64,000 nt of DNA from Oxynema sp. CENA135 (GCF_016632315.1 NZ_JAEOXH010000002.1:32160-96159); one strand, 5' to 3'; positions 8,182 through 59,552 are shown, counted from the stretch's first letter. Numbers and translations are program-made. Notes: generated by a model from the sequence alone, not told the origin.

Positions 8182-8214
8182 AAATCTAAAATCTAAACTC
8201 TAAACTCTAAACTC
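8182..8214. repeat. heptanucleotide tandem repeat array (ATCTAAA/CTCTAAA units)
   Basis: aaatctaaaatctaaactctaaactctaaactc read directly in the divergent intergenic region. Confidence 0.8.
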
Positions 8215-8302
8215 CCCACCCCCGCCAAGATCGCCTTGAGATAATGTAGAAATAGCTTAGTCGCCTTGCCTCCACTCGAAAATCTCAATACTGAACTGCT
8301 CC

Positions 8303-9901: not shown

Positions 9902-9905
9902 TGGA

Positions 9906-9927
9906 AATTTTAGATTTTAGATTTTAG
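9906..9927. repeat. heptanucleotide tandem repeat array (TTTTAGA units), inverse orientation to the 8182 array
   Basis: attttagattttagattttag immediately after the stop codon at 9899-9901. Confidence 0.8.
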
Positions 9928-10106
9928 CTACTAGGCGGGAAGCCCCGCGCTCTCCCGAAGGGGAGCGTCGGGATGAGAGCCGCGCTTGCTGAGTGGGGTA
10001 CTCTCCGAGAAGCCGCTTCGCGTCTACGATGCCCCCGAAGCAAGCAATAGTCTACGCAACGCAACCAGTATTTATCAGATTACTGGGTTCATGCTAAAAT
10101 AGCGGT

Positions 10107-15317: not shown

Positions 15318-16208
15318 CTACAATCGAAAGTCACGCACGCTTTGCCAGTAGGAAAGAGGAACCCCCGTATCGAAACATTCTCCTTCCAAACAACAGCCAT
15401 ACATTCCTTCCAACTGACGCAACTGTTCTAAGGCTGTCGTGAGTTGGATTTCGCCGCGATCGCGCCGTCCGTCTCGGATGTTTTGTTCGAGAATCTCGAA
15501 GATTTTGGGCGTTAACAAATACAGCCCAAAAACGGTTAAAAAATCGTTCTCCGCCAATCCTTCGACCCGCAGATGCGATCGCGCGTAATTCAAATCCGGC
15601 TTTTCGGTTACTTCGCTTAAGTTTATCAGCCCTGTTTCCGGCTGCCAACTCCCCGCCACACAACCGCAATGATACAGCTCCTCGGCGGGAGTGACGGTCA
15701 CCCCGATCGCACTTTTTCCGACTCGTTCGTAGACTTCAACCAGTTGACGCGCGCAAGAGATTTCCCGCGTCGAACGATAAATATGGTCGCCTAACATTAA
15801 TAAAAAAGGTTCTGTGCCAACCCAATCTTTAGCGCAATAAACGGCGTGACCGAAGCCGTCTTGTACGGGTTGAGTCAATATATTAATCCGTTTGCCGACA
15901 GTTTCTAAATAACGGACGTATTCTTTTTGATGGGGTTTTATTTTATGGGCAAAGGCTTCGGAAAGGGGCGTTTTAAAAAAGTCTTCAAATTGGGCGCGAT
16001 CGCTCTCGCGGGTGACGATCGCAATTTGTTCGATTCCGGCACTGATGGCTTCTTCGGCGATCGCCAATATAATCGGTTTGGCGATCCCGTCGCGATCGAC
16101 GATCGGAAATAATTCTTTAGCGATCGCTTTGGTCGCCGGAAACAGTCGGGTTCCAAATCCACCCGCCGGAATGACAGCTTTACGAACCTGTGATTTGACT
16201 TCGGTCAT
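15318..16208 (-). CDS. galU: UTP--glucose-1-phosphate uridylyltransferase
   Basis: N-terminal KAVIPAGGFGTRLFPATKAIAKELFPIV is the GalU nucleotidyltransferase signature. Confidence 0.8.
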   Translation of the reverse strand: MTEVKSQVRKAVIPAGGFGTRLFPATKAIAKELFPIVDRDGIAKPIILAIAEEAISAGIEQIAIVTRESDRAQFEDFFKTPLSEAFAHKIKPHQKEYVRYLETVGKRINILTQPVQDGFGHAVYCAKDWVGTEPFLLMLGDHIYRSTREISCARQLVEVYERVGKSAIGVTVTPAEELYHCGCVAGSWQPETGLINLSEVTEKPDLNYARSHLRVEGLAENDFLTVFGLYLLTPKIFEILEQNIRDGRRDRGEIQLTTALEQLRQLEGMYGCCLEGECFDTGVPLSYWQSVRDFRL

Positions 16209-16326: not shown

Positions 16327-16444
16327 CTACAGCAATTCGCGCTGTCATGAGGTACAAGAGGCAAAGATCCCCCCAATCCCCCTTAAAAAGGGGGACTTTC
16401 ACTGCCCCCCTTTTTAAGGGGGATTTAGGGGGATCGAAATGTAC
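16327..16444. repeat. MITE-like repeat element, copy A (about 118 bp, G5/C5-palindrome rich)
   Basis: tacagcaattcgcgctgtcatgaggtacaagaggcaaagatccccccaatccccc...ttttaagggggatttagggggatcgaaatgtac. Near-identical in reverse complement to 27768-27878 and related to 58085-58227. Confidence 0.8.
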
Positions 16445-16541
16445 TGCCGAACAGCGAAAACTGCTCTATGCTCTTTTCCTGACAGCGATTTAGATTTATC
16501 TGTGGTAAATTCCCCCTAGATTTTACCCCAGAAGATCCCCA

Positions 16542-17480
16542 ATGACTGTCAAACCTACTCTGGACTCTCCTGTAAAAAATCCCCTGGCGTGGAAGCTCAA
16601 TCTGACGATCGCGGTCGGGGTTTTAGCGGTCTCCACCGCCGCCATTTTTATCCGCTTGACCCTGGAAGCTGCGGGAACCCGAGGGATTGGCTTTAGTTTG
16701 GTGATGGCCGCCACTCGTCTCACAATTGCCTCACTTTTGTTGGCTCCCGCGTGGCGCAACCTCAAACCCGCCCGTCTCGAAAAAGCGGCGATCGCCCAAG
16801 CTGCCCTCGCTGGCGTGTTTTTAGCGCTCCATTTCGCCGGGTGGATCGCGTCGCTCTCTTATACTTCGATCGCCGCTTCGACGACGATCGTCACCATGAA
16901 TCCGATTTGGGTTTCCTTGCTGTCCTGGTGGATTTACAAAGACAAACCCACGAAAATGACGGCGATCGGAATCGCGATCGCCTTAATGGGGGGAATGGCG
17001 ATCGGATTGGGAGATAGTGGCGGGTTGTACGGCGGAAGTAACCCAATTTTGGGAGATCTGCTCGCGTTGTTAGGATCTTGGACGATTAGTATCTATTTAT
17101 TGCTGGCGAAGTCGGTGCAAAGTCGGGGGATGGGAATTGGTCCGTACAGCGCGATCGTTTGTACTTGTGCGGCGCTGGTTTTACTACCGATGCCGTTTGT
17201 TTTTCAAACTTCATATTTTGGCTATCCCACGGAAGTTTATTTTTATATTCTTCTGATGGCTTTGATTCCTCAAATGATCGGTCATACGAGCTTAAATTGG
17301 GCTGTTCGTTGGACCTCTCCCACTTTAGTCGCGTTGGCGGTTTTATTTGAACCCGTTGCATCGAGTTTTTTGGGCTTTTTGGTCTTTAATGAAGTTCCCG
17401 GGATCTCGGTTTTAATTGGGGCGATCGTTTTGTTATTTGGAGTGGCGATCGCCGCGATCGGGTCGCGTCCCCAGGGATGA
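16542..17480 (+). CDS. EamA/DMT-superfamily transporter (10 TM)
   Basis: 312-aa polytopic membrane protein with two EamA-like halves. Confidence 0.75.
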   Translation: MTVKPTLDSPVKNPLAWKLNLTIAVGVLAVSTAAIFIRLTLEAAGTRGIGFSLVMAATRLTIASLLLAPAWRNLKPARLEKAAIAQAALAGVFLALHFAGWIASLSYTSIAASTTIVTMNPIWVSLLSWWIYKDKPTKMTAIGIAIALMGGMAIGLGDSGGLYGGSNPILGDLLALLGSWTISIYLLLAKSVQSRGMGIGPYSAIVCTCAALVLLPMPFVFQTSYFGYPTEVYFYILLMALIPQMIGHTSLNWAVRWTSPTLVALAVLFEPVASSFLGFLVFNEVPGISVLIGAIVLLFGVAIAAIGSRPQG

Positions 17481-21392: not shown

Positions 21393-21650
21393 AACGACTG
21401 TTGCTCCTTGTTATGCAATTACGGTACTGATTCCAGGATAGGGTGCAAACCTGCCGAGTGACCAGAAGTTGAAATCCAGTCCTAAAAAGTGACCCGGAGT
21501 CCACGCCTACCGCAAGCATCCCGTGTTGCTGCTCCCTTCCGGGTCTGACAAGGTTTAGGCGTTGCGATCGCATGGGTCCGGATCGCTTACTAGCATATCA
21601 TTATTAAAGGAGAAAACAAGGGTTCGGGCTGAAAAATCCCCAAAAATCCC

Positions 21651-37268: not shown

Positions 37269-38318
37269 ATGAACACGATTAAAATCGGTAACTATTCGAT
37301 TGGAATCGAGCATCCGCCCTTTATTGTGGCTGAAATGTCCGGCAATCACAATCAATCTTTAGATCGCGCCTTAGAGATTGTCGAAGCGGCGGCGGCGGCT
37401 GGAGTTTCCGCAGTTAAACTACAAACTTATACGGCGGAGACGATGACCCTCGACCTCGCCGAAGAAGAGTTTTTTATTAACAATCCCGATAGCCTTTGGC
37501 ACGGTTATTCTCTTTACCAACTTTACGAAAAAGCACATACTCCCTGGGAATGGCACCAGCCTATTTTCGATCGCTGCCAACAATTAGGCATCATCGGCTT
37601 CAGTACGCCTTTCGATGCAACTGCCGTTGATTTTCTCGAATCTCTAGCCGTTCCTTGTTATAAAATTGCGTCTTTTGAAAATACCGATTTGCCGTTAATT
37701 CGTAAAGTTGCCAGTACGGGAAAACCGTTAATTATTTCTACAGGAATGGCGACGATCGCCGAATTAGATGAAACGGTGAGAACGGCGAAAGAAGCGGGAT
37801 GTCGATCCCTCATTTTATTAAAATGTACGAGTACCTATCCGGCGACACCGGAAAATAGTAATTTGCGAACTCTTCCCCATTTACGCCAACTTTTTGATGT
37901 CGAAGTCGGTCTTTCCGATCACACGATGGGTGTCGGCGTTGCGGTGGCGAGTGTGGCTTTTGGAGCCACATTTATCGAAAAACATTTTACCCTCAGACGA
38001 GCCGATGGGGGTGTCGATTCCGCTTTTTCGATGGAACCACAGGACATGCAACAATTGGCGATCGAAACCCAGAGAGCTTGGCAATCATTGGGGCGAATTC
38101 AATACGGCCCGAGTGACGCAGAAAGGGCTTCAATGGGCTTTCGTCGTTCTTTATATGTGGCGCGAGACATGAAGGCGGGAGACTGTTTTACTCCGGAGAA
38201 TTTGCGGGCGATTCGTCCGGGGTTGGGGTTGTCGCCCAAATATTATCAAATCTTGCTGGGGAAAGTGGTTAAAAAAGATTTAAAAAAGGGAACTCCGGTA
38301 AGTTGGGACGTGATTTAA
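37269..38318 (+). CDS. pseI: pseudaminic acid / N-acetylneuraminate synthase (NeuB family)
   Basis: IGNYSIGIEHPPFIVAEMSGNHNQSLDRALEIVEAAAAAGVSAVKLQTY, NeuB TIM barrel, C-terminal SAF/antifreeze-like domain. Confidence 0.85.
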   Translation: MNTIKIGNYSIGIEHPPFIVAEMSGNHNQSLDRALEIVEAAAAAGVSAVKLQTYTAETMTLDLAEEEFFINNPDSLWHGYSLYQLYEKAHTPWEWHQPIFDRCQQLGIIGFSTPFDATAVDFLESLAVPCYKIASFENTDLPLIRKVASTGKPLIISTGMATIAELDETVRTAKEAGCRSLILLKCTSTYPATPENSNLRTLPHLRQLFDVEVGLSDHTMGVGVAVASVAFGATFIEKHFTLRRADGGVDSAFSMEPQDMQQLAIETQRAWQSLGRIQYGPSDAERASMGFRRSLYVARDMKAGDCFTPENLRAIRPGLGLSPKYYQILLGKVVKKDLKKGTPVSWDVI

Positions 38319-38363
38319 TTTTAGATTTTAGATTTTAGATTTTAGATTTTAGATTGAGATTTA
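38319..38363. repeat. heptanucleotide tandem repeat array (TTTTAGA x about 6)
   Basis: aattttagattttagattttagattttagattttagattgagattt immediately after the pseI stop. Confidence 0.8.
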
Positions 38364-40413: not shown

Positions 40414-40426
40414 AACCGTGCGATCG

Positions 40427-40484
40427 TCTAAAATCTAGAATCTAAAATTTAAACTCTAAAATCTAAACTCTAAAATCTAAACTC
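40427..40484. repeat. heptanucleotide/14-mer tandem repeat array (AAACTCTAAAATCT x3 plus variants)
   Basis: tctaaaatctagaatctaaaatttaaactctaaaatctaaactctaaaatctaaactctaaaatctc between convergent gene ends. Confidence 0.8.
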
Positions 40485-40491
40485 TAAAATC

Positions 40492-41388
40492 TCAAGACCG
40501 CCGAATATTAAAACAGCACCAATCTTGACGCCGCCAGAGAGTCGCGACGACCCAGCCATGCTGTTCGAGAGTATCGGCGACAGGTTTCGCTTGTTCGAGC
40601 AGTACCCCACTAATAATTCCCCAGGTACTCGGTTTGCAAATATTATCCATCTCGGGAATTAAATCTAAAATGGTTTCGGCGAGGATATTGCAAATAATCC
40701 CATCGACAGGTTCTTCGATCAGTTGTTTGACCCGTTCGACACTGCCGAGTTTAACTAACATTTTCGACTCGGGAATTTTATTGAGTTCGCGACACCGACG
40801 GGCGGCCCGAACGGCGAGGGGGTCGATATCCACCGAGTAGGCTTTCCCGGCGCCCAACAACAGCGCCCCGATGGATAAAATTCCCGAACCGCAACCGATA
40901 TCGGCCACTTGTACCCCAGAATCGCTCGGATCGAAGCCCAAACGCATTTCTAACGCTTCGAGACAAAGTTGAGTGGTGGCGTGGGCACCCGTACCGAAAG
41001 CGGCGCCGGGGTCCAAGCGTAGGAGCAGGCGATCGCACTGTTCCGGAAGGGGAAGCCACGCCGGATAAATCAAAAAGCGATCGCCGATCTCTTGCGGGTG
41101 CCAATGTTTTTTCCAACTGATCGCCCAATCTTCCTCCTCGATTAAATTCCACTGCATCGCGGGAGTGGGCAATCCGATCGCGAGAGCATCTTGGCGCAAC
41201 AGTAGGGAAAGCGCGGACAAATCCAGCATTTGAGCGCGTTCCTGGGGCAGATAGGTGGAAATCAAACAGGAATGACCCTTTAGCTCCGTAGCCATCCCGC
41301 GACAGCCGAAACTTTCCAAGCGCCAGAAGATCGAATCTTCCAGAGCGGGATCGCACAGCACTTGAATTTCCCACCAATTGTTGGCCAT
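40492..41388 (-). CDS. prmA: ribosomal protein L11 methyltransferase
   Basis: Start [10 protein letters not shown] (typical PrmA N-terminus; the track ORF extends to 41475); SAM motif [20 protein letters not shown]. Confidence 0.85.
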
Positions 41389-46521: not shown

Positions 46522-47079
46522 ATGAACCGTCCCACATTGCTGACCGCCAGCGCCCTCGCCCTCGTCCTGGGATGCTCCCTTCCCATCCTCGCCCAAGTCA
46601 ACGCCCCCGTGCAAGAGCTGCTAGAAACCGGGAACGGTGCGGGTTTCAACCTCAACGGCGCCGATCTTTCCGGTAGGGATTTGGCGGGGGTCGATCTGCG
46701 TGGAGCCAACCTCAACGGCGCCGATTTATCCGGCGCCAATTTATCCAGTGCGAACTTAACCGGAGCCAACCTCAGAGGGGCAAATTTACGCGCAGCCAAT
46801 CTAACAGAAGCCGATTTATCCGTTGCGAATTTAGTCGAGGCGACCTTAGACGGAGCTAATTTACAAGACGCACTGTTAAAAGCTGCAAACTTGAGTGGAG
46901 CCCATTTAGTAGAAGTAGATTTGCGCAATGCCGATTTATTTCGGGCAAATTTGAATGCGGCAAACTTAAGAGGCTCGAATTTACTCAATGCCAATTTTAA
47001 TGCAGCGAATTTAATCGGGGCGAACGTCCTCGGTTCGAGAGGCGGTAACTTTACCAATGCTATTGGGTTTACGCCATAA
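46522..47079 (+). CDS. secreted pentapeptide-repeat protein
   Basis: Signal peptide MNRPTLLTASALALVLGCSLPILAQ, then about 25 tandem A(N/D)LxG pentapeptides. Confidence 0.8.
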   Translation: MNRPTLLTASALALVLGCSLPILAQVNAPVQELLETGNGAGFNLNGADLSGRDLAGVDLRGANLNGADLSGANLSSANLTGANLRGANLRAANLTEADLSVANLVEATLDGANLQDALLKAANLSGAHLVEVDLRNADLFRANLNAANLRGSNLLNANFNAANLIGANVLGSRGGNFTNAIGFTP

Positions 47080-47286
47080 ATAAGAAGGTTTGAGGACGTC
47101 GGAGCGATCGCCGCGACGAGACCGAAAGTAAAGGTCAGATTGTGGCGTTTTTATTTGTTTTAAAAGAATAATTATTGAAGGTCTGCGGTCGATGGAAAAT
47201 GGAGATTTTTTGTAGAGAGAACCTGTTAGCGATCGCCGGAGCGGGGGAACACTAAGCGGCAAGATTATAAATTACGGGGGGAAACC

Positions 47287-47898
47287 GTGAAACTCAGTCT
47301 TTTACTCTCTTTAGTTTTACCCGTAGCCATCGCTTGGTCTACTCCCGGTCACGCTGCCAACCCAGAACACGTCACCCAATTGTTAGAAACGAAACAATGC
47401 GAGGGATGCGATTTAAGTAATGCGGATTTAGTCGGGGTGGATTTGCGCGAAGCGAACTTAAGGGGTGCGAATTTAACGGGAGCGAATTTGGAAGCGGCGA
47501 ACCTGTGTAATGCGGATTTATCAGAAACTAATTTAGAAAAAGCGACATTAATTAATGCCAATTTATTTGAAGCGAACTTATCTGGGGTCAATCTCAAACA
47601 AGGGCAGTTAGCAAATGCCAATCTCAGTTTTATTAATTTAAGCCGTTCGGACTTGAACGGGGCGAATTTATCCCAAGCCAATTTAGGGATGGCTAACTTG
47701 AGCGATGGGAACTTAAGTTATACCGATTTACGCGGAGCCAATTTAATCGGTGCGAATTTAAGCGGGGTCAGTTGGGAAGCGGCAAATCTGACCGACGCTC
47801 ATTTAGATCCTGCCAGTATTAACGAGGCGAATGGGTTGGCAACGGGAGAAACCAGCGCCGTCGAAGTGACGGAACGCGATCGCGCCCGGGTCCGATAA
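47287..47898 (+). CDS. secreted pentapeptide-repeat protein (paralog)
   Basis: Signal peptide MKLSLLLSLVLPVAIAWSTPGHA, then tandem ANLxx pentapeptides. Confidence 0.8.
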   Translation: MKLSLLLSLVLPVAIAWSTPGHAANPEHVTQLLETKQCEGCDLSNADLVGVDLREANLRGANLTGANLEAANLCNADLSETNLEKATLINANLFEANLSGVNLKQGQLANANLSFINLSRSDLNGANLSQANLGMANLSDGNLSYTDLRGANLIGANLSGVSWEAANLTDAHLDPASINEANGLATGETSAVEVTERDRARVR

Positions 47899-56359: not shown

Positions 56360-56598
56360 TTTTAGAGCGTCGTCCTTTCTTAAGCGAAATCAAACGTGAA
56401 GTGAAATCAAAAGCGATCGCACTAACCGTTGCAACTCTTTATTTCTATCGGGCGATCGGGTCTTCCGCATCAAACCATCTCCTCAAGTTGAGGCTCGAAC
56501 CCCAGTCTCTTGAGAGTGGGGTGGGGACTCGATGGTTTCCGTTCCCTCGAATCCTCTGTCAGATTATCACGACTTTCATAGGCTTGCTCCTAGGGCGT

Positions 56599-57500
56599 GT
56601 CATCAATTATGTAGGTTGACAAAAGTGACCAAATGTGGAGGAAAGCGCCTGCGGACATTTAAGCCAGCCAAATCACGGATGCAGCCAGGTAAATGCCACC
56701 CAGGAAGTTCACCGAGCGCTTGTCATAACGAGTGGCAATCCCTCGATACTGTTTGAGCTTGGCAAAGAAGTTTTCCACCAGATGTCGGGTTTGATACAAG
56801 AATCGATCGTAATCGTGGGCTTGTTTTCGATTCTTTTTCGAGGGAATGACGACTTCAATCCCTCGCTCGTGCAACGGTTGTCTGACTCGTTCGTCGGCAT
56901 CGTAAGCTTTATCCGCTAGCAGTGCCTGGACTTCCACTGATGGTAGCAACCGCTCGGCACCGACTAGATCGCTGGCCTGACCGGGAGTTAAAAAAAAGAT
57001 ATGGGATTCCCCAAAGCATCCACCACCGCATGAATTTTCGTACTCAACCCGCCTCGGCTACGACCGATATTTTCCTCTTCGGCTGAACTCCCTGATGCTC
57101 CAGCACTGTGCTGATGCGCTCGCACAATGGTGGAATCGATGGCAGCATATTCGTTATCGGCTTCCTCGCAGAGGACTTGGAAAACGCGCTCCCACACCCC
57201 AGTTTTTGACCAGCGAGTGAAGCGTGTGTGGACGACTCGAAAATCCCCAAAGCGTTCGGGAAGATCTCGCCAAGGAATCCCTGCTCGAAAGCGATACAAC
57301 ACGGCTTCGACGAATAAACGGTTATCTTTAGCTGTGACCCCAACTGTACCCGGACGACCCGGAAGCAGGTGTTCAATGCGTTGCCATTGGTCGTCTCGTA
57401 AAGCGTAACGCCGTTTCATCCCGGTTTTGAGCTATCTTGAGTGAACGGGTAGCAGGCTACACACATTTCACTATTTTTGTCAATTTTCTTAATTGATGAC
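56599..57500 (-). mobile_element. IS5-family insertion sequence (IS427/ISL2-like) with about 35-bp imperfect terminal inverted repeats
   Basis: IRL gtcatcaattatgtaggttgacaaaagtgaccaaatgtg (56599-56637). IRR reverse complement gtcatcaattaagaaaattgacaaaaatagtgaaatgtg (57462-57500). The element encloses a two-ORF frameshifted DDE transposase. Confidence 0.75.
56659..57419 (-). CDS. IS5-family DDE transposase produced by programmed frameshifting (orfA 56988-57419, orfB 56659-56949)
   Basis: orfA MKRRYALRDDQWQRIEHLLPG (HTH); orfB ...ADKAYDADE...VIPSKKNRK...YRGIATRYDK (DDE/K motifs); a slippery A7/T7 run at the junction (56991-57000). Confidence 0.75.
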
Positions 57501-57505
57501 AGACC

Positions 57506-57886
57506 CTAGGAAGCTCTCATAGGAACCGCGTGACATCCTCCCGACATTGTGGTCTGCAACACCTGAGAATGCACCTGACCCAGATGTGGGAATTGCTTCT
57601 TCGCTTTGGGCAGGTTGTTCTGCTGACGATGGTAAGACGGGAATGGTTCATCGGCAGGAATGGTGTATTCCTTTTCCAACGAGCATCGGTCTACCTGACA
57701 CTTACGCGAAGCAATCCAGTCTTTGAGTTCGCGCAAAGCGTAGTTATATACGCCTGGGCACGTCTCAAGCCACGACCGCAGTTCAGTCTGCCCGGTGGCG
57801 TCTGGATAGATTCGGTAGGTGTAGTTCATGGTCAGCATGACCGGAGTTGACCACAGGCTATAGCTGCTGATAAATGCTGGTCTCAT
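57506..57886 (-). pseudogene. truncated TnpB (IS605 OrfB-family) N-terminal fragment, abutting the IS5-family element
   Basis: MLTMNYTYRIYPDATGQTELRSWLETCPGVYNYALRELKDW matches the TnpB N-terminal HTH/WED region (compare tnpB at 10107, MLKAIKVRIYPTDEQ...). Only about 126 aa are retained and the RuvC and Zn-finger regions are absent. Confidence 0.6.
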
Positions 57887-58084: not shown

Positions 58085-58227
58085 TACAGCACTTGGGCGT
58101 CTGATGAGGTACAGTACCGATCCTCCTATCCCCCCTTCGCCCCTCTTTCAAAGGGGGGTTGGGGGGATTTCGGGGGGAACGAGCAAAGTCCCCCTTTTTA
58201 AGGGGGATTGAGGGGGATCTAAATGTC
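58085..58227. repeat. MITE-like repeat element, copy C (diverged, about 143 bp)
   Basis: tacagcacttgggcgtctgatgaggtacag...ccccttttttaagggggattgagggggatctaaatgtc shares termini and G5/C5 palindromes with copies A and B. Confidence 0.7.
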
Positions 58228-58322
58228 TTGCATAGCAGAGGAAAATGCTGTAGGTCACCTCAAGTGACCCACTGAGGGTTGAGCCAACTCCTCAACAGTT
58301 CGATCGCCCAGGAGATTTCCGG

Positions 58323-59552
58323 TTAGCGCAACAGGAGTAAAACGGTTTGCAATAAACCGACCAGTGTCCCTAGAACCCCACCCAGATTGACGATCGCTTG
58401 CAGTTCGCTGCGGACGATCCCTTGTACGGCGGCTTCTAAATTTTCCGGCGAAGTGCCTTTAACGCGATCGACGATGACGCCATCGATGTTGAGAATCGGG
58501 ATGGCTTTGGCGACAATGGTTTCTAGATCTCTTTCTAAATAGCGTTCGAGAATTAAGGCTAATTCTTGGCTGACCAATCCCAAGGAGGTACTGACTACGG
58601 AGGACGCTTGCAGGCGTTTGAGGATTAAATTGGCGACATTTTCCCAATTGACCGAATCGCTCAATCCTTGCAACAGTTCGGCGCCGCGATCGCGGATGTA
58701 AGCGCGCACGGTATCGCGCATGGTTTTACGCAGTTGGCGAACGGTAGAAACGGGCAGATTTTGCAGGGAAATATTTAACAACCATTCTTGGAAGCGGTCG
58801 GACAGGGCTAAGGTCTCGATTAACTCGGCAATACGGGCGTTTGCTTGTTCTTTTTCGTCCAAACAAAAGGTTCGCAGGCGGGTTAAGGCGTTGCGCAAGC
58901 CGAATAAATTGGCAACGACCCAATAGGTGCCACTGGTTTTTTCTCGAAATCCTTCATCGATAATGGCGATGTTGCGATCGGTGAGGAAATCGACGAGGTT
59001 TTGACGGATGACATCCGGGGGAATGACCGCCGCGAGCAACCAATCGGAGAGTTGGCGTGCTTGGAGATCGGAGAGTTGAAATTCGAGTAAAACTTGGTCG
59101 AAAATTTGGTTGAGTTGTTCTTCGAGAAAGTCTTCCCGACGTGCGAGAACTTTGATCAGGCGGGGTAAAGATTCGCCGAGCAAATCGCGCAAAATTCCGG
59201 CGAGAATCTTGGCGGTTTTTTGTTCCGTATCCGATTTAAGCTGGTCGAGAGCGAGTTCGAGTAACCAGAGGATCGCCGATTGCATTCGTTCTGTCGCCAG
59301 CAGTCGTCGCGCCAGGTTTTGCAATTCTTCCGGGGTCAGCAACGATCCCATGATCGTATCGGCGACCCGTTGGGCGAGGCGTTCTTGATTGCGCGGGATC
59401 AAGCCGGGAGTGAAGGGAAGGCGACGCCCGCCGATGAAGATCGCCCGATAGGGACGAAAGAGCATGTTAATGGCGAGATCGTTGGTGAAATAGCCAATAA
59501 TGCCCCCCGCGATCGGCGGTAAAACGTAAGGCCATAGGGTTGCAACATCCAT
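58323..59552 (-). CDS. DUF445-family membrane protein
   Basis: N-terminal [16 protein letters not shown] motif typical of DUF445; 409 aa. Confidence 0.7.

Follow-up and report, generated by a model that had tools for sequence, protein, structure and literature searches.

The window, by which we mean the whole stretch of 64,000 nucleotides from Oxynema sp. CENA135 analysed here, holds three copies of a short palindromic sequence, set in unrelated flanks. Its EamA protein is 100% identical to the one of Oxynema sp. CENA135, while exact look-ups of three other proteins of the window gave no match. A motif scan with the patterns GATC-C5-7...C5-7, G5-7...G5-7-ATC and C5-7-T(W)n-G5-7 found G5/C5 unit motifs at exactly three sites, which we call copies A, B and C. 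Copy A (16328-16468, 141 nt) lies between the divergent genes of an NTP_transferase protein (15318-16208, minus strand) and an EamA/DMT protein (16542-17480, plus strand). Copy B (27742-27878, 137 nt) occupies the spacer between xfp, encoding phosphoketolase, and ackA, both on the minus strand, and is 19 nt upstream of the ATG start codon of ackA (27722, minus strand). Copy C (58085-58252, 168 nt) is found 71 nt downstream of a DUF445 gene (58323-59552, minus strand) and adjoins both an IS605 OrfB remnant (57506-57886) and an IS5-family element (56588-57511). All three copies are intergenic, sited between Pfam-assigned ORFs, lack coding capacity and are shorter than the 600 bp by which MITEs are recognised. 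The original prediction, made from the same sequence, had described three such copies, one in the xfp-ackA spacer and one abutting IS remnants, and direct reading of the sequence together with the motif scan bears it out on these points.

Several other features of the window were observed alongside. The IS5-family element next to copy C encodes DUF4096 and DDE_Tnp_1_2 domains between 50-nt terminal inverted repeats (TIRs), and the orthologous place in O. aestuarii AP17 is without the element. In xfp (28004-30436), codon 663 (28448-28450, minus strand) reads as an in-frame TAA, whereas both AP17 and a JGI Oxynema encode Gln there (CAA); the difference falls in a HIP1 site (GCGATCGC to GCGATCGT), and xfp in CENA135 is either a pseudogene or affected by a sequencing error. 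The gene beside xfp (30644-33358, minus strand) encodes a protein of about 890 amino acids, whose orthologs in two related Oxynema sequences (L121, 4336-7005; L132, 405-3074) match domains of the eukaryotic major vault protein (Vault, Vault_2/3/4 and MVP_shoulder), making it a vault-like cyanobacterial protein. Arrays of 7-nt repeats of the AATCTAA / TTTAGAT type, resembling STRR heptamers, occur in both orientations at 8182-8231, 38318-38355 and 40424-40508, and a long degenerate run of 15-nt periodic repeats, as in genes of pentapeptide-repeat proteins, extends over 46721-47805. The window also contains a full-length bacterial small SRP RNA (21488-21584, minus strand; 59.1 bits, Rfam).

The three copies share a common layout, in which TIRs of 29-31 nt, with TA on either side, read TA-YAGCR-N14-ATGAGGTACA. 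In copy A, the left TIR (16328-16356, plus strand) is TACAGCAATTCGCGCTGTCATGAGGTACA and the right TIR (16440-16468, minus strand) is TGTACTGCCGAACAGCGAAAACTGCTCTA; between them the G5/C5 core (16366-16435) is an inverted doublet of units of about 30 nt, bounded by GATC at both ends and closed by a central loop of 9-10 nt. In copy B, a 31-nt left TIR (27742-27772, plus strand; TACAGCACTCGGGCGATCCGATCGAGGTACA) and a right TIR (27850-27878, minus strand; TGTAACTCATGACAGCGCGAATTGCTGTA), which belongs to a stretch 97% complementary to 16328-16387, enclose a core (27778-27840) made of a perfect 41-nt palindrome (ATCCCCCTAAATCCCCCTTAATAAGGGGGATTTAGGGGGAT, minus strand) followed by G6-TT-G6-ATC. In copy C, the core is enlarged to 101 nt (58119-58219) by additional C/G-run units, and lies between a left TIR (58085-58113, plus strand; TACAGCACTTGGGCGTCTGATGAGGTACA) and a degenerate right TIR (58224-58252, minus strand; TGTCTTGCATAGCAGAGGAAAATGCTGTA). 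Copies B and C read TA-CAGCA...TGCTG-TA, and copy A differs at its right end, TGCTC-TA. The six ends sort into three types, T1 (left of A, right of B), T2 (left of B, left of C) and T3 (right of A, right of C), so that each copy is a mosaic: T1+T3 for A, T2+T1 for B and T2+T3 for C.

These boundaries revise part of what had been claimed for the repeats, and the original prediction is overall only partly confirmed: the three copies with their nested palindromes stand, while the coordinates, the right terminus and the identity figure do not. The intervals given for the copies (16327-16444, 27768-27878 and 58085-58227) are too short. Of the shared termini, described as TACAGCA...(A)TGTAC, the TACAGCA start is found on all three copies, but the right terminus was misplaced by about 24 nt: the "(A)TGTAC" belongs to the conserved block on the inner side of the 29-nt right TIR (TGTACCTCAT), and the element ends farther out. 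Similarly, the identity of over 90% between copies A and B holds between A and reverse-complemented B in one 60-nt arm (97%) and one 31-nt stretch (94%), but falls to 80% over the shorter coordinates first proposed and to 76% over the full elements; A and C are 66% identical over their full elements.

The window was compared with O. aestuarii AP17, with the MAG J007 and with several assemblies of Oxynema from JGI. Four sequences carry the element at site A (the window, L128, L129 and L130, the last being AP17), and three have an empty site (L124, L125 and L127). The empty allele is CCCTCTATGCTC and the filled allele is CCCTC-TA[CAGCA...TGCTC]TA-TGCTC, with flanks that are otherwise identical. 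Since the empty site has one TA and the filled site two, strains differ at site A by the exact insertion or absence of the element, the TA target having been duplicated. The TA could formally belong to the terminal repeat, but the empty site argues otherwise. Beside site A, one of the empty sequences shows a strain-specific indel, a 31-nt segment with CTTAA repeats at its bounds (L124, about 9905-9935). At site B every one of the three lineages compared, represented by the window, AP17 (L132) and a JGI Oxynema MAG (L121, L122), has a copy; in the JGI strain an insert of about 70 nt (L121, 9767-9836) abuts the TA of copy B. At site C, AP17 lacks the copy together with 70 + 8 nt of flank, which indicates a larger indel rather than a clean empty site, and site A has thus given the one clean empty site obtained. 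It can serve as a clean strain-level marker for Oxynema. The view that the repeats are small non-autonomous mobile elements therefore stands, with a TA duplication at site A and conserved termini on all three copies.

The family from which these elements derive could be traced through their ends. Among the loci that were fetched, many cyanobacterial genera have ends of the TIR class TA-YAGCR-nTT...ATGAGGTACA. In the 24 distinct ends, which were collected with a pattern fixing the terminal (positions 1-7) and inner (positions 22-29) blocks, the positions left free by the pattern also agree: TT occupies positions 9-10 in 23/24 ends, A position 20 in 16/24 and T position 21 in 21/24. A metagenome scan for the terminal repeat returned a single match (L123), an element of about 250 nt with the same TIRs, without the G5/C5 core, and with a 58-codon ORF (MKAYSIDLREK...KNWFTNCCYCTS). 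This ORF is a fused N- and C-terminal remnant of an IS630 transposase (78% identity over 32 aa, E = 2e-11, by tblastn against plasmids); NCBIfam did not recognise the 58-aa remnant. Complete elements were found on plasmid pOSC7112.02 of O. nigro-viridis PCC 7112 (1,021 nt; L139, 696-1716) and on a plasmid of Nostoc sp. C057 (about 1.02 kb; L140, 698-1716). Both encode HTH_Tnp_IS630 (5.8e-8) and DDE_3 (4e-29 and 5e-31) domains in a protein annotated as an IS630 family transposase, and the ends of both read TACAGCACTTCCGGGTGTTATGAGGTACA / TGTACCTCATAACATCCGGAAGTGCTGTA, with TA on the outside; the stop codon of the transposase falls within the right TIR. The ends of the Oxynema copies match the TIRs of these two elements at 24-25/29 positions for T1, 22-24/29 for T2 (the left end of copy C agreeing with the O. 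nigro-viridis element at 24/29) and 18-21/29 for T3. With TIRs and flanking TA shared with complete IS630 elements, and with the TA duplication at site A, the three repeats are very probably non-autonomous MITE copies of IS630/Tc1-mariner origin. Of the six ends in the window, two (right of A and right of C, both T3) are degenerate, and judging from these ends some copies may no longer be mobile. A tblastn search of the 64-kb window and of about 60 kb of related Oxynema sequence found no IS630 transposase gene with these TIRs, and lone terminal repeats among the at least 120 core loci described below had no adjoining transposase.

While the TIRs stay nearly constant, the interior of the elements does not. 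The central 21 nt of copy A are inverted with respect to AP17 and L128 (GGGGGACTTTCACTGCCCCCC vs GGGGGGCAGTGAAAGTCCCCC), and once this segment is re-inverted, one substitution and one indel are left between the window and AP17. The orthologs of copy B have conserved TIRs, with a few substitutions, and three different cores: the core of AP17 (L132) is A-like, that of the JGI strain (L121, L122) is roughly reverse-complemented and C-like, and in the window an imperfect palindrome has been turned into the perfect 41-nt palindrome. These changes are those expected from recombination between inverted arms and from palindrome-templated strand switching, which may be the mechanism behind them. Exact inversions and palindrome-perfecting changes in close strains offer a natural record of cruciform/template-switch mutagenesis that is directly measurable.

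The nested palindromes had been proposed to form cruciforms or structured RNA, and the predicted folds agree with this. The RNA of copy A is predicted to form one long, nearly perfect hairpin from either strand (-72.6 and -83.5 kcal/mol; z -8.5 and -9.8), and its DNA is also predicted to fold (-39 kcal/mol; z -7.8). Copies B and C likewise fold far better than shuffled sequences in these predictions, with -58.3 kcal/mol (z -6.2) for the minus-strand transcript of copy B. Copy B also contains, at 27803-27837 on the plus strand, the run G5-ATTTA-G5-ATTTAA-G6-TT-G6, a canonical four-run, short-loop G-quadruplex motif, which lies on the template strand of xfp-ackA. Scans around copies A and B found no sigma-70-like promoter or intrinsic-terminator consensus inside the elements. 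Rfam, at gathering score over the whole window, gave nothing at the elements and returned the SRP RNA elsewhere, and at E<=10 copy A drew sub-threshold matches to generic hairpins.

The termini place the copies in one IS family, to which their core is not confined. We scanned for exact matches to a 29-nt pattern (CCCCCTTWWTAAGGGGGATTKAGGGGGAT), taking one genome per species, and found at least 120 loci across Nostocales, Oscillatoriales, Chroococcales, Pseudanabaenales, Synechococcales and Spirulina, the matches listed including Nostoc, Microcoleus, Microcystis, Pseudanabaena, Moorena, Chamaesiphon, Spirulina, Scytonema, Lyngbya and many other genera. The family had been called novel, but its parts are not: many cyanobacteria have the TIR class and, even more notably, the G5/C5 core. 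Conservation extends beyond the pattern itself, with C following GGGGGAT in 113/125 and CAAAGT preceding the pattern in 61/125 of the matches listed. The typical core consists of two inverted units of about 30 nt, GATCCCCCCTAGCCCCCCTTAAAAAGGGGGG-(about 15 nt ending in TCAAAGT)-CCCCCTTTTTAAGGGGGATTTAGGGGGATC, with the consensus GATC-C6-YAR-C6-TTAAAAA-G6, about 15 nt, C5-TTTTTAA-G5-ATTKA-G5-GATC. Among the matches listed, 116 cores could be evaluated, of which 54 are doublets, their commonest spacer being 15 nt, and 48 have no second unit within 400 nt; cores or single units without a detectable outer TIR are common, and some cores bear tandem additional hairpin modules. The boundaries are always at GATC, and the sequences outside GATC differ.

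The core is carried by at least six TIR classes: AGAGGATGTTTGAAAAGT (about 20 cases), GCTACGGTGTACACACAAGT (about 10 cases), ATACCAATTCTTTATGAAGCTGCA, CTAGGGCGTGTTTTCAAA, AGAAACCATTTAAGAATT and the IS630 class TA-YAGCR-nTT...ATGAGGTACA. Further core-carrying ends are specific to Microcystis or to Microcoleus. The IS5-like class CTAGGGCGTGT shares 16/19 terminal bases with the IS5-family element of the window (CTAGGGCGTGTC...), and the same cassette is therefore present in MITEs from two IS families or more. Conversely, at least four TIR classes include members without the core, namely those we label F1, F2 and F3 and the IS630 class (L123 and the full-length ISs L139 and L140). When copy A was compared by BLAST with 72,556 plasmids, only its positions of about 35-132 matched, nearly all of the matches falling within 38-117, a span that takes in the core and at most some bases of linker or TIR edge, and the whole TIR never did; with copy A or a consensus core as query, 24 of these plasmids carry the core, all of them cyanobacterial, and in nearly all the DNA concerned is unannotated. 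A scan of 2.9 million viral contigs (IMG/VR) gave 0 matches to the core.

A number of particular loci deserve mention. One exact 29-nt core unit occurs in a MAG of the Trueperaceae (L045, 6116-6144; OZ243956.1), that is, in a Deinococcota sequence with 61% GC and no HIP1 sites. At this length the match is much too long to be due to chance and reflects either horizontal transfer or a chimeric assembly. At several loci (L006, 1694-2029; L008; L026; L063; L115; L038; L089) other MITEs or inserts lie within the hairpin loops or at the centre of the core, and elsewhere palindromic CCTTAATAAGG-like sequence also borders the GCTACGGTGTACAC class, a placement that suggests that inserting MITEs may target hairpin loops. 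In Synechocystis plasmids (L134-L138), a core without detectable outer TIRs is found at the same place, the DUF87-hydrolase spacer, in four plasmids that differ in their number of internal modules; a fragment ending like the AGAGG...TTTGAAAAGT TIR class is present in two plasmids. At this spacer pSYSX of PCC 6803 has unrelated sequence, too diverged for comparison. Among Picosynechococcus and Synechocystis plasmids we found no clean empty site for a solo core, the unit or core being conserved among close relatives. Full-text literature searches for the core sequence found no paper, and MITE reviews and cyanobacterial genome papers did not describe it, though the cassette may have been described elsewhere.

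Other explanations of the three copies have to be weighed against an IS630 origin. It is scarcely credible that they arose by local duplication or recombination rather than by transposition, the alternative which the original prediction had itself raised. It would account for the window having only three copies, with their halves shuffled (T1+T3, T2+T1 and T2+T3), but the flanks are unrelated, the genes around the copies differ from site to site, which excludes a segmental duplication, the TA filled/empty polymorphism is precise, and ends of this TIR class recur in many genera, complete IS630 elements among them. Very improbable, too, is that the copies are REPs or REPINs moved by a RAYT (Y1 transposase). 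A pair of short hairpin units, inverted and closely spaced, is indeed how a REPIN is built; against this, the unit has no GTAG or CGTC tag, TA duplication and long TIRs are not features of REPINs, no RAYT gene was seen beside any copy, and the sole cyanobacterial RAYT-associated REP that we compared, from N. punctiforme (gttgggtttcgttcctcaacccaac), is unrelated. RAYT/REP membership was rejected on this difference of sequence and on the missing tag. We also consider it unlikely that the copies have been preserved for a cis-regulatory or RNA function (for instance as an attenuator, a processing site, an mRNA stabiliser or a promoter in the xfp-ackA spacer), with their MITE appearance being secondary. 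Copy B does stand at the same place in three Oxynema lineages, so close to the ackA start, its minus-strand transcript is predicted to fold strongly and all copies are intergenic. However, no sigma-70-like promoter, intrinsic-terminator consensus or Rfam family was found in the scans above, three strains lack copy A, which is thus dispensable, and the core structure of copy B differs in each of three strains, which speaks against a constrained RNA structure; taken together, these observations leave a regulatory role unsupported. The suggestion that copy B acts as an attenuator or promoter thus retains the predicted strong hairpin alone, with no promoter-like or terminator-like consensus in or adjoining the copy. 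For the phosphoketolase/acetate kinase pair, this hairpin 19 nt before the start of ackA is at most a candidate for an effect on expression.

A different question is raised by the core, and here the alternative complements the IS630-derived MITE explanation and does not exclude it. We tentatively consider that the G5/C5 cassette could be a discrete module, mobile or selected by the host and comparable to REPINs, BOX elements or SDRs, with GATC...GATC ends of its own and with the IS630 TIRs as one vehicle of several. The exact core at so many loci in many cyanobacterial orders, the conserved bases flanking the pattern, its invariable GATC boundaries inside MITEs of at least six TIR classes, including IS5-like ones, the core-less members of at least four of these classes, the frequency of solo units and the presence on 24 plasmids, all cyanobacterial, with one exact unit in a Deinococcota MAG, point in this direction. 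On the other side, the plasmid comparisons gave no clean solo-core empty site, the RAYT-associated REP of N. punctiforme is a different sequence, the core is absent from the viral contigs, solo cores could be decayed MITEs, and recombination between shared palindromes could shift the core from one family to another without any mobility of its own. We know of no protein associated with the G5/C5 core. Based on this balance, it is possible, and in our view somewhat doubtful, that the doublet is a cyanobacteria-specific cassette with its own fixed ends, spread or exchanged independently of any one transposase and riding in the MITEs of several IS families or alone. If so, it would represent a new class of hitch-hiking module and not a mere filler of MITEs. 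The near-identity of the cassette across the phylum may arise because a conserved host or mobile-element protein recognises the core, or because nested palindromes regenerate themselves by templated repair.

Taking the IS630-derived MITE as the preferred explanation, a possible model would be the following. Each copy is built of two bipartite TIRs of 29-31 nt (YAGCR-nTT...ATGAGGTACA), short linkers and the internal G5/C5 palindromic cassette, and encodes nothing. An IS630-family DDE transposase, presumably supplied in trans by an Oxynema IS630 element, would bind both TIRs and insert the element at a TA dinucleotide, with the TA being duplicated in this step. The cassette, a separate module found across cyanobacteria, would lie outside the signal recognised by the transposase, and would have entered the element at some point in its history; with its two inverted units of about 30 nt (GATC-C5/6-linker-C5/6-TTAAAAA-G5/6) about 15 nt apart, it could snap the whole element back into one long hairpin, which may in turn benefit transposition. 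Because it is a nested palindrome, the cassette would evolve by inversion of its own arms and by palindrome-templated correction, with the TIRs staying constant. The MITE family itself is routine, one more IS630-derived family beside many cyanobacterial ones, and the shared palindromic cassette is the more interesting part: about 75 nt of palindromic sequence are common, almost base for base, to mini-transposons with different TIRs and parent IS families throughout the phylum. If the cassette is a unit in its own right, this bears on what fills the interior of MITEs, on repeat-driven misassembly of cyanobacterial genomes and on a conserved protein that would read it.

Several known repeat systems resemble the Oxynema copies in part. 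The Correia/NEMIS elements of Neisseria are about 100-155 bp long, with 26-bp terminal repeats and a TA duplication; they form a long RNA hairpin that is cut by RNase III, and can carry promoters. We know of no parent IS for the Correia elements. By analogy, the Oxynema copies would be similar to them in size, TA duplication, whole-element hairpin, intergenic location and possible co-transcription with neighbouring genes. The sequences are unrelated, however, a parent family is identified for the Oxynema copies, and promoters and processing are traits of Correia elements. Nezha, from Anabaena/Nostoc (Zhou et al., 2008), is, as summarised in passages of two later papers, a MITE of 130-170 bp that shares its TIRs with an IS, its partner being ISNpu3, and that shows filled and empty sites between strains (PMC3184786, PMC6042816). 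As far as these summaries go, it is thus like the Oxynema copies as a cyanobacterial MITE of similar size, with IS-shared TIRs and strain-level filled and empty sites. Membership of Nezha was nevertheless rejected on its description, which in the passage concerned gives a 10-bp direct repeat, CATTATCTAC (PMC6042816), as opposed to the TA found here.

The core recalls other systems in form only. It is REPIN-like in pairing two short, inverted hairpin units across a small gap, its variable internal hairpin modules between two fixed end modules are like those of the pneumococcal BOX element, and its mosaic combinations are BIME-like; unlike all of these, it has another sequence, no GTAG/CGTC tag and no link to a RAYT, and sits as a module within TIR-bearing MITEs. 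The STRR/G-quadruplex heptamer repeats of PMC4692102 were also considered and rejected as a match, being a different repeat. A further comparison is with the SDRs of Nostocaceae (Elhai et al., 2008), for which a length of 21-27 nt and no occurrence beyond Nostocaceae are reported (PMC5861425). Compared by such descriptions, SDRs and the G5/C5 unit are both very small, hairpin-forming cyanobacterial repeats nested within other repeats (PMC5861425, PMC3116915), whereas the G5/C5 unit is about 30 nt long and phylum-wide. Finally, the IS630/Tc1-mariner insertion sequences of cyanobacteria and their MITEs share with the Oxynema copies a TIR that agrees at 24-25/29 positions and starts with CAG after TA, as well as the TA duplication, and the deletion derivative L123 ties TIRs of this class to a transposase gene. 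The Oxynema copies differ from these elements in that they keep no transposase remnant, their interior being replaced by the G5/C5 cassette that they have in common with mini-transposons of other families.
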